From a virus (lineage: Duplodnaviria > Heunggongvirae > Uroviricota > Caudoviricetes), in the IMG/VR virus record IMGVR_UViG_2645727991_000023, positions 1 through 9,973 of that record: a DNA stretch of 9,973 nucleotides; one strand, 5' to 3'. A program made the translations under genes and the position numbers. Under the pieces are notes generated by a model. The model saw only the letters and a program-made list of their open reading frames with translations. It searched no databases and had not been told where the DNA came from. Shown here piece by piece: positions 1,546-2,628 of this stretch; the stretch's first letter is position 1; every line of letters starts with the position of its first letter.

Positions 1546-2628
1546 TCACCCCCTGAATCCCGGCGGTATTTCAGTGTCCGGTTCAGAAATGTGATTCACG
1601 CAACGCTGGTTGTTCGTGCCGCTTACCGGGAGCAACCAGGGGTTTTCAAAATTCCGGTCCGGCCCAAAAAACGTCGTCGCTCGCTGAACAAATTCCGTTC
1701 CCGCTTTCCCGGTCGCCGCCAGGTATCTCGCGTAACGCCTCACACCATCCAGCATGGTCTCTGGTGGCACCCCCTCGCGCAATCTGGCCTTCCAGGCACT
1801 GAATGCGGATTTCTTCGGGTTTGCTCCGGCACGCAACGGGTACTCCCGCCAGACCTGTTCGAACACATCCGGATAATCCACTCGTCCCACAGACTGCCCG
1901 GTGTTTTCCGGGACTACCCGATCGGCTTCCCGCTGAATGGCGGAATCGGCTTCAGGCTGCTGCAGTTGGTGTGATTGCTCCGGCCTTGCGGTCATCACCT
2001 GCTGCACAGCGCCCGAATCGGCTTTCAGCGCATACGCTGAATCGGCTTCCGGTGTCGTGCCTGCTGGCTGACCAAGATTGACGGTCTGAACATCCCCTGC
2101 CTGGTTCGTGGCGTTTTTTACGCCATGGACCATAGTGTTTTGATCTTCTTGATCTGTATCTTTATCTGTATCTTTATCTGTATCTTTATCTGTCGTGACT
2201 CGTCGTGACATGTGCGTGACATTTCGTGACGCGCCGTGACAATCGCCATTTTGTTCCCACTTTCTTTCCCTCTCTCGCTGCGCCCTCTTGCGCTCTGCAG
2301 GAGATTTTGCGGTTTGCGAAATATTGCCGTTGTCCTCTTTAAGCACCTGGCGTTTTTCCCATCCAGTGATTAAATCACCATCAAGTACCCGCCCCTGCAT
2401 CGTCTGCAAAATTGAATCAATTACCTCTTCTGTCACGTCGAGCGCACTTGCCAAATCTTCTGTCGTGACATCAATGTGACCTCGCGTGACATTTCGTGAC
2501 GCGCTCACCAGGAGGTGGATATACACTGCCATCACTGTTGCAATTGGCTGCCCTGACACCCTGGCAATTGTTCGCCACTTAGGGTCATTTGGCATGTCAT
2601 GCCATAATCTGAGCCAGGCGTTAGCCAT
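1546..2628 (-). CDS. Phage replication initiator (lambda O analogue) with DnaT-like C-terminal domain
   Basis: ORF track starts at GTG 2634; ATG at 2628 with AGAGGTGAGT just upstream is the more likely start (MANAWLRLW...). C-terminal ...VNHISEPDTEIPPGFRG resembles my recollection of the E. coli DnaT C-terminus (...SEPDSQIPPGFRG). Contains internal DNA repeat arrays (iteron-like) that encode repeated SRNVT and DKDT peptides. Sits immediately upstream of the DnaC-like gene, like host dnaT-dnaC. Confidence 0.75.
   Translation of the reverse strand: MANAWLRLWHDMPNDPKWRTIARVSGQPIATVMAVYIHLLVSASRNVTRGHIDVTTEDLASALDVTEEVIDSILQTMQGRVLDGDLITGWEKRQVLKEDNGNISQTAKSPAERKRAQRERERKWEQNGDCHGASRNVTHMSRRVTTDKDTDKDTDKDTDQEDQNTMVHGVKNATNQAGDVQTVNLGQPAGTTPEADSAYALKADSGAVQQVMTARPEQSHQLQQPEADSAIQREADRVVPENTGQSVGRVDYPDVFEQVWREYPLRAGANPKKSAFSAWKARLREGVPPETMLDGVRRYARYLAATGKAGTEFVQRATTFFGPDRNFENPWLLPVSGTNNQRCVNHISEPDTEIPPGFRG
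2157..2192. repeat. Three perfect tandem copies of the 12-mer TATCTTTATCTG, with a degenerate copy upstream from 2143, inside the initiator gene
   Basis: Direct reading: copies at 2157-2168, 2169-2180 and 2181-2192. On the coding (minus) strand they translate to (DKDT)n in the initiator linker. Confidence 0.9.
2194..2240. repeat. Iteron-like array 1: five CGTGAC hexamers at about 10-bp phasing (putative origin within the initiator gene)
   Basis: CGTGAC at 2194, 2204, 2215, 2225 and 2235, one helical turn apart. Position inside the O-like gene parallels lambda ori. Function inferred. Confidence 0.6.
2432..2504. repeat. Iteron-like array 2: CGTGAC/TGTGAC at 2464, 2475, 2485 and 2495, plus an inverted GTCACG at 2432
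   Basis: Same hexamer family at 10-bp phasing. The 21-nt stretch GCGTGACATTTCGTGACGCGC is repeated exactly at 2214-2234 and 2484-2504. Confidence 0.6.

Follow-up and report, generated by a model that had tools for sequence, protein, structure and literature searches.

Origins of replication embedded in the gene of the phage initiator are an established class, to which lambda, P22 and SPP1 oriL belong. In lambda and the Stx phages, the central part of gene O contains iterons and an AT-rich tract, which together nucleate the O-some, and the iterons, four in lambda and six in the Stx phages, form one cluster (PMC7466680). In oriL of SPP1, AB boxes bound by G38P and a DNA-unwinding element (DUE) are located inside gene 38, and G38P has a second specific binding region (PMC5737612). 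Here, a stretch of 9,973 nucleotides (nt) from the Caudoviricetes record IMGVR_UViG_2645727991_000023 (positions 1 to 9,973, hereafter called the window) was analysed. It carries the early genes of a lambdoid prophage of E. coli. Its replication initiator gene contains two arrays of the hexamer GTCACG, one of which adjoins an AT-rich tract. Judged by sequence comparison and by analogy, the gene most probably harbours a two-part phage origin composed of iterons and the AT tract, with the other array as an auxiliary iteron array. We found no description of this origin in the searchable literature.

The plasmids P1 (incC/incA), F and R6K use one and the same iteron twice, in the origin and in a further array by which initiation is modulated. 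The origin of the SaPIs comprises two sets of hexamer iterons flanking an AT tract, and their iterons are very short (hexamer or octamer). For phage P4, Ziegelin et al. in 1993 and Flensburg and Calendar in 1987 are said to have described two iteron clusters, ori and crr, which are recognised by the same initiator and are both needed in cis.

Hexamer arrays and AT-rich tract in the initiator gene

The minus-strand open reading frame (ORF) 1546–2628 contains both arrays. Its product of 360 amino acids (aa) is divided into an N-terminal domain (N-domain), a linker and a C-terminal domain (C-domain). The elements are located in the window as follows:

1546–2628, minus strand: gene of the replication initiator (replisome organizer); start codon ATG at 2628, product of 360 aa
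2464–2500, minus strand: array 2, GTCACG at 2464, 2485 and 2495 plus GTCACA at 2475; gene-strand spacings 10, 10 and 11 nt
2432–2437, plus strand: inverted hexamer, CGTGAC on the gene strand; codes for a D-V-T peptide at the start of the putative recognition helix
2194–2240, minus strand: array 1, five GTCACG; gene-strand spacings 10, 10, 11 and 10 nt; codons ~129–145 in the disordered linker
2214–2234, unstranded: 21-nt repeat GCGTGACATTTCGTGACGCGC, copy 1, two iterons plus spacer
2484–2504, unstranded: 21-nt repeat GCGTGACATTTCGTGACGCGC, copy 2, exact
2147–2193, minus strand: AT-rich, purine-biased tract with the 12-nt tandem repeat TCTTTATCTGTA in 3.9 copies; candidate DUE

On the plus strand the hexamer reads CGTGAC, and exact copies were located at 2194, 2204, 2215, 2225 and 2235 in array 1 (spacings 10, 11, 10 and 10) and at 2464, 2485 and 2495 in array 2 (n = 3). 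The five phased hexamers of array 1 with 10–11 nt spacing and the inverted copy at 2432, both listed in a first-pass annotation of this DNA, were thus confirmed. Four hexamers had been assigned to array 2 at 2464–2500, but only three of them are exact, while position 2475 reads TGTGAC, a 5/6 match that keeps the GTGAC core. The 21-nt repeat claimed to be common to the two arrays is indeed exact, and no match was observed in any shuffle. CGTGAC occurs ten times in the window compared to 4.2 expected copies (at least ten in 0 of 200 shuffles); a stray copy at 7939 is unrelated to the arrays. The phased form GTGAC-N5-GTGAC was counted five times with 0.02 expected. The hexamer is asymmetric and is placed once per helical turn in each array. 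When the codons of the initiator gene were permuted synonymously 5000 times with the protein kept, a mean of 1.3 and a maximum of 5 GTCACG were obtained versus 8 observed. Hence, the repeats are not a by-product of the amino-acid sequence.

Array 2 lies approx. 230 base pairs (bp) upstream of array 1 and comprises codons 41–55, which encode the end of helix 3 and the loop preceding the helix-turn-helix (HTH) of the N-domain. The AT tract sits directly 3' of array 1 in gene orientation. It reads AGATAAAGATAC on the gene strand, codes for DKDT peptide repeats and, with a GC content of 0.275–0.325, forms the minimum of the initiator gene. The segment between the arrays (2241–2463) has a GC content of 0.40–0.60, and the AT tract is located outside of it, distal to array 1. 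Array 2 is without an AT-rich tract of its own. Strains and lineages differ in the number of DKD(T)-coding units, which have a period of 6 or 12 nt and are present in 2.5 to 10 copies (window, L006, L016 and L043). The candidate unwinding tract is thus length-polymorphic, and slippage is the probable cause.

Compared with the lambda origin, the window shows the same embedding of the arrays in the initiator gene, with array 1 in the segment for the inter-domain linker, and the same succession of direct repeats and an AT-rich, strand-biased tract in the direction of transcription. Like lambda O, the initiator appears modular, with an N-terminal DNA-binding and a C-terminal loader-recruiting part, and its gene follows cro and cII in the early operon. 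The protein is, however, no homologue of O (no Pfam match; fold similar to the N-terminal domain of DnaD, DnaD-NTD), so the resemblance is functional and not familial. A lambdoid-type origin in an O-like gene had been proposed in the first-pass annotation. The phased-iteron origin is supported by the comparative data presented below, namely fixed positions, concerted motifs, DNA-level selection and the conserved AT-rich tract abutting array 1, but the relationship of the gene to O is not. Further differences are the 6-bp asymmetric cores every 10–11 bp, where lambda has dyad-symmetric iterons of ~19 bp, the second array in the N-domain codons, where lambda has a single cluster, and the DnaC-like loader in place of P. 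Lambda also carries a palindrome beside its AT tract. An inverted repeat in a similar position of the window is not conserved in relatives:

2102–2132, unstranded: inverted repeat with a 13-bp stem, TGGTTCGTGGCGT/ACGCCATGGACCA, just beyond the AT tract; origin membership doubtful

A conserved palindrome beyond the AT tract was also considered as a family feature and rejected, as the relatives did not exceed shuffled controls.

With SPP1, the window shares a non-AAA+ 'replisome organizer', boxes plus an AT-rich tract in the organizer's own gene and a loader gene downstream. The initiator has an N-terminal DnaD-NTD-like winged helix; at the sequence level, it gave weak matches to PHROG 'replisome organizer' families and no Pfam match. 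The second SPP1 site, oriR, is far off in the genome, whereas the second array of the window is ~230 bp away in the same gene; no GTCACG cluster resembling a distant oriR was found elsewhere in the 46-kb genome of phage Tritos. P4 ori/crr is reportedly similar in having two clusters of short asymmetric iterons (8 bp) about one helical turn apart. Its clusters, in contrast, are said to be ~4.5 kb apart and outside the codons of the initiator's DNA-binding domain, and its alpha protein is a primase-helicase unrelated to the initiator of the window. Plasmid and SaPI arrays flank the rep gene or the AT tract, whereas both arrays of the window lie within coding sequence, and the AT tract is distal to array 1 and not, as in the SaPIs, between the arrays. 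The location of one cluster within the codons of a folded DNA-binding domain sets the window apart from the two-cluster systems of P4 and the plasmids.

Conservation, concerted change and DNA-level selection

A scan at one genome per species yielded 52 related loci with N-domains that are 50–98% identical. They originate from Enterobacterales, Pseudomonas, Bordetella, Acidovorax, Chromobacterium, Variovorax and others, i.e. from gamma- and beta-proteobacteria. Both arrays were present at the same two positions in 41 of the 52 loci, and these positions are fixed in phages and prophages of Pseudomonas, Aeromonas, Bordetella, Serratia and other hosts at only 50–75% protein identity. Pseudomonas and Aeromonas phage DNA with ~70% identity likewise carried both arrays at equal gene positions. 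Counted from the conserved W5 codon, the hexamers of the GTCACG class are found at ~116, 126, 136 and 147 nt and then at ~374–417 nt. In more distant homologues, GTAACG or CGAACG(C) replaces GTCACG at both places. In 42 non-redundant relatives, array 1 is found in the same location with one to six exact copies; array 2 has three to six, which resemble array 1 in number and orientation. A layout with two arrays had been remarked on as unusual before, and it proved to be a conserved design and not an accident, as it recurs in the 41 loci and in an unrelated N-domain family described below.

Scoring of the two zones in the 52 loci gave GTCACG in both zones for 26, CGAACG in both for 10 and GTAACG in both for 5. 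No motif was detected in either zone of 7 loci, a motif in one zone only was observed in 4, and none was discordant. The motif class was thus identical in both arrays in 41/41 loci where both could be called. According to a neighbour-joining tree that was built from the loop-masked N-domain, both arrays switched together on at least five independent occasions, a count that is approximate given the 73 columns of the tree. GTAACG appeared in at least four separate places of the tree and GTCACG once within the CGAACG clade. Both arrays are predicted to share one binding specificity.

The AT-rich tract was found in the relatives as well. The 40 nt past the last hexamer of array 1 had a mean A+T content of 67% versus 45% gene-wide in 42 non-redundant lineages, and 73% purine on the coding strand. 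This tract follows array 1 in all motif classes, even in GC-rich hosts and where the gene has only 31–38% A+T. In about eight lineages of several motif classes (L001, L012, L014, L015, L026, L029, L041 and L045), a C5–6...G5–6 inverted repeat such as TACCCCC-N4-GGGGGTA was observed just past the AT tract, 40–75 nt from the last hexamer of array 1; the window is without such a repeat.

Several features indicate that selection acts on the DNA and that the peptides follow from the hexamers. In both arrays, hexamers fall into each of the three reading frames (VT, xSR and xHx), and the linker peptides vary freely among lineages while the hexamers persist. GTAACG never occurs in the frame that would yield a TAA stop. 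Neighbouring copies in the relatives were spaced by 10 nt in 130 cases and by 11 nt in 30, but only once by 9 nt and once by 12 nt. Their mean spacing of 10.2 nt matches the helical repeat of DNA, and multiples of the codon length are avoided. In 20 non-redundant genes of the GTCACG class, the third codon positions within array-2 hexamers had an entropy of 0.11 bit versus 1.37 bit elsewhere in the N-domain (Mann-Whitney p = 1.6e-5), and third positions between the hexamers were saturated. The conserved repeat is confined to the 6-bp core and at most one flanking base. About half of the relatives in the GTCACG class have an exact inverted hexamer at the position of that in the window (+179/180, counted from W5), but the entropy of its third codon positions is only moderately reduced (0.57–0.88), which makes its status as a site uncertain.

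These data also bear on the coupling of DNA and peptide repeats noted in the first-pass annotation. ASRNVT is in fact encoded twice in the initiator (aa 43–48 and aa 134–139), but this coupling is secondary, as the hexamer is read in three frames. The repeats might instead matter as a peptide module (SRNVT/VT/SR) or as a messenger RNA (mRNA) motif, GUCACG, bound by a regulator, the DNA periodicity being incidental. All copies of both arrays are on the coding strand and hence in the mRNA, which would suit this explanation together with the duplicated ASRNVT. It is nevertheless extremely unlikely: the use of three frames results in unrelated peptides, the linker peptides differ freely where the hexamers stay, the 10/11-nt spacing fits the helical repeat and avoids multiples of three, synonymous sites are frozen inside the hexamers only, and the array adjoins an AT-rich tract as in known origins.

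It is similarly very unlikely that array 2 is a non-functional copy of array 1 that arose through slippage or gene conversion and does no harm in a permissive loop. The exact 21-nt identity between the arrays of the window and the tolerance of the loop towards indels of 7 aa (21 nt, two iterons) would agree with such an origin of the array. Array 2, however, occupies the same codons across gamma- and beta-proteobacterial lineages at 50–70% protein identity, its synonymous sites are frozen where neighbouring third positions are saturated, and an unrelated N-domain family has acquired or retained the same layout. The indels in question were seen in E. coli and E. albertii variants (L003, L004 and L006), in which an in-frame insertion of 21 nt (7 codons, TCHGVSL) in the loop adds two array-2 iterons. 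As two iterons (10 + 11 nt) equal 7 codons, array 2 can be resized without breaking the frame.

The motif was compared with the domains of the initiator and its neighbours. The GTCACG N-domain was found with unrelated C-domains, and the loaders encoded next to it differ, being DnaC-like in the window and lambda-P-type in L003. An O157-type prophage gene, on the other hand, has the C-domain of the window at 93% DNA identity but an unrelated N-domain, and contains no GTCACG. Instead, it carries AAGGGGCTT at 11-nt spacing, with N-domain copies at gene nt 184 and 195 and linker copies at 440, 451 and 462. Its two arrays are 255 nt apart, and this layout is kept in relatives down to ~80% identity. 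Among phages of the same or close hosts, the motif differs as well: E. coli phages have either GTCACG or AAGGGGCTT, and the GTCACG of Erwinia contrasts with the GTAACG of Pantoea and Enterobacter. The motif follows the N-domain type and not the host, the C-domain or the loader type. Since the two-array layout recurs with an unrelated N-domain, replisome organizers of this class may have a general need for such an architecture.

The dependence on the N-domain type is also relevant to the question of which protein binds. The hexamers could be sites of another protein, either a host factor or a different phage protein. The HTH of the N-domain is acidic and the domain structurally matches DnaD-NTD, which in Bacillus is mainly an oligomerisation scaffold; both points would favour another binder. 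As the motif differs among phages of the same or close hosts and tracks the N-domain type, this explanation is considered improbable.

Some further observations were made on the second N-domain family and on the exchange of domains. The second family (MRDYAKVSPRFW...) with the same C-domain is represented by L138 1501–2592 (minus strand; E. coli strain 9000, WP_001205823.1) and also by L137 and L172–L219. Its repeat (G)AAGGGGCT(T) is present in two copies in the N-domain and in two to three in the linker, followed by GAACAGGA (EQEQ) repeats. The initiators are mosaic, with the C-domain being exchanged independently of the N-domain and its iterons (window 1546–2100 compared with L001, L002, L003 and L138). 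The C-domain type goes with the type of the adjoining loader, which fits a C-domain that recruits the loader. Two homologues from Serratia and Pantoea (L046 and L054) have neither hexamer array but ACTACG(T) repeats at gene nt ~310–350 from W5, followed by a segment that resembles a GIY-YIG nuclease motif (YYVY...YVGIS.NP..R). HNH domains (PF01844) occur in several database homologues (P0041, P0060 and P0072).

Proposed two-part origin and the role of array 2

Protein binding, unwinding and origin activity are proposed to proceed as follows. At array 1, monomers of the initiator N-domain would align on one face of the DNA, each helical turn offering one hexamer, and would assemble into an oligomeric nucleoprotein complex comparable to the O-some of lambda or to G38P bound to the AB boxes of SPP1. 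The adjoining AT tract would then melt, and the DnaT/DnaD-like C-domain may recruit the phage DnaC-like loader and host DnaB to the melted tract. Array 1 and the AT tract are regarded as the putative core of the origin because of the analogy to lambda and SPP1 and because of the covariation described above. Array 2 would be a second site for the same initiator. It most likely cooperates with array 1, with the ~230 bp between them looped or wrapped so that the initiation complex is built or stabilised. Cooperation is favoured because layout and distance recur in an unrelated N-domain family.

The main alternative, less likely but to be taken seriously, is that array 1 and the AT tract form the whole origin and that array 2 is regulatory and stays outside the initiation complex. 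An initiator bound ~130 nt into its own coding region could act as a transcriptional roadblock (autorepression). Alternatively, array 2 could be a titration or handcuffing site that limits initiation, similar to the incA iterons of plasmid P1 or the half-iterons in Rep-gene operators. Auxiliary control iterons are established in plasmids (P1 incA, R6K and RK2), array 2 is dispensable in some lineages retaining array 1 (L039), there is no AT-rich tract beside it, and the distance and phase between the arrays are not tightly conserved. Nothing speaks directly against such a role. The copy number of three to six and the orientation of array 2, however, mirror array 1, and the spacing of ~230–260 nt recurs in the unrelated N-domain family; this suggests a structural requirement more than a simple roadblock.

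Several points weigh against the proposed two-part origin. Array 2 is absent in 11 of the 52 relatives, some of which (e.g. L039) keep array 1 alone, and is therefore not indispensable for the family. The arrays are 195–340 nt apart, and this distance shows only weak clustering of its helical phase (Rayleigh R = 0.35, from lineages that are not independent), so that a loop of fixed geometry is not strongly supported. Gene conversion between the arrays could contribute to the concerted change besides selection by a common binder, a possibility suggested by the exact 21-mer. The putative recognition helix of the N-domain HTH is acidic. No DnaA boxes were detected near the arrays, and no paper on the origin of this initiator family was found in the searchable literature.

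Apart from one variable loop (aa 45–55), the DNA-binding domain is nearly invariant. Array 2 encodes this loop, in which the residues that separate the motif classes are concentrated. Outside the loop, no convincing specificity-determining residues were identified; the informative columns were dictated by the hexamers themselves. The array-2 loop may help to read the hexamer, so that the recognised sequence and a part of its reader would reside in the same nucleotides, but this is unlikely. L044 is a counter-example with its TERGR loop of the CGAACG type and GTAACG arrays, and the loop is thus not the sole determinant of specificity. If the idea were true, a single substitution that conversion carries from one array to the other could alter the site and its reader at once. 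It would then explain the clean and repeated switches GTCACG <-> GTAACG <-> CGAACG and offer a route to new specificities and to escape from incompatibility.

For an initiator type that occurs in prophages across gamma- and beta-proteobacteria and whose origin has no published description that we could find, the result is a precise predicted map of the origin, consisting of two hexamer arrays and an AT tract. GTCACG, GTAACG and CGAACG would represent three natural specificity classes. The layout, which the single-cluster paradigm of lambda does not predict, indicates that a functional DNA array can be maintained within the codons of a folded DNA-binding domain, with overlapping codes for protein and DNA site. 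The map may be of practical use for predicting the replication compatibility of prophages and for the design of mini-replicons.

The initiator protein, its neighbours and distribution

The initiator consists of a winged helix (aa 1–95), a basic helix (aa 110–126), a disordered linker (aa 129–165) and a swappable C-domain (aa ~204–360). It matched phrog_3729, 'replication initiation protein', end to end with E = 6e-254, and further PHROG matches split it into an N-terminal module (aa 1–150) and a C-terminal one (aa 204–360, DnaD/DnaT-like PHROGs). Matches to 'replisome organizer' PHROGs were weak (phrog_4880 with E = 4e-7 and phrog_5968 with E = 5e-5), while 'phage replisome organizer' is the NCBI label on close relatives. 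The best structural match of the N-domain was DnaD-NTD, a winged helix. A Pfam search with the 360 aa gave zero matches at E ≤ 0.01, including Phage_rep_O (PF04492), and a search of the PDB sequences with the N-domain profile gave none. Pfam and NCBIfam together revealed no family match beyond a stretch of 24 aa from the C-terminus of DnaT. This stretch, aa 337–360 (window 1546–1617), matched positions 156–179 of E. coli DnaT (NF002770, E = 0.0016), and relatives are annotated as 'primosomal protein I' or 'DnaT-like' because of it.

The helicase loader is encoded immediately downstream of the initiator:

793–1539, minus strand: DnaC-like helicase loader gene (PRK12377 with E = 1e-152; DnaC with 1e-89)

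Upstream of the initiator are a YdaT/cII-like gene, a YdaS/cro-like gene and a divergent DicA-like repressor gene, and integrase and excisionase genes are located at the other end of the window. A search for internal promoters and terminators in the origin region yielded nothing above chance.

The initiator gene is 96–97% identical to those of the phages Tritos, Evi and vB_EcoS-689R5 and was detected with at least 80% coverage in 1647 of 5426 complete E. coli genomes. In the complete 46-kb genome of Tritos, the two arrays are the only GTCACG clusters. Plasmids with the gene as sole replicon were also looked for; the matches were large records or Pseudomonas records of ~51 kb that resemble episomal phage genomes. 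The 624-aa ORF 5864–7738, which had no Pfam match, contains an imperfect 21-nt tandem repeat at 7390–7480 with 4.3 copies of the consensus GAAACAAAACGAGCCAGAAAC.

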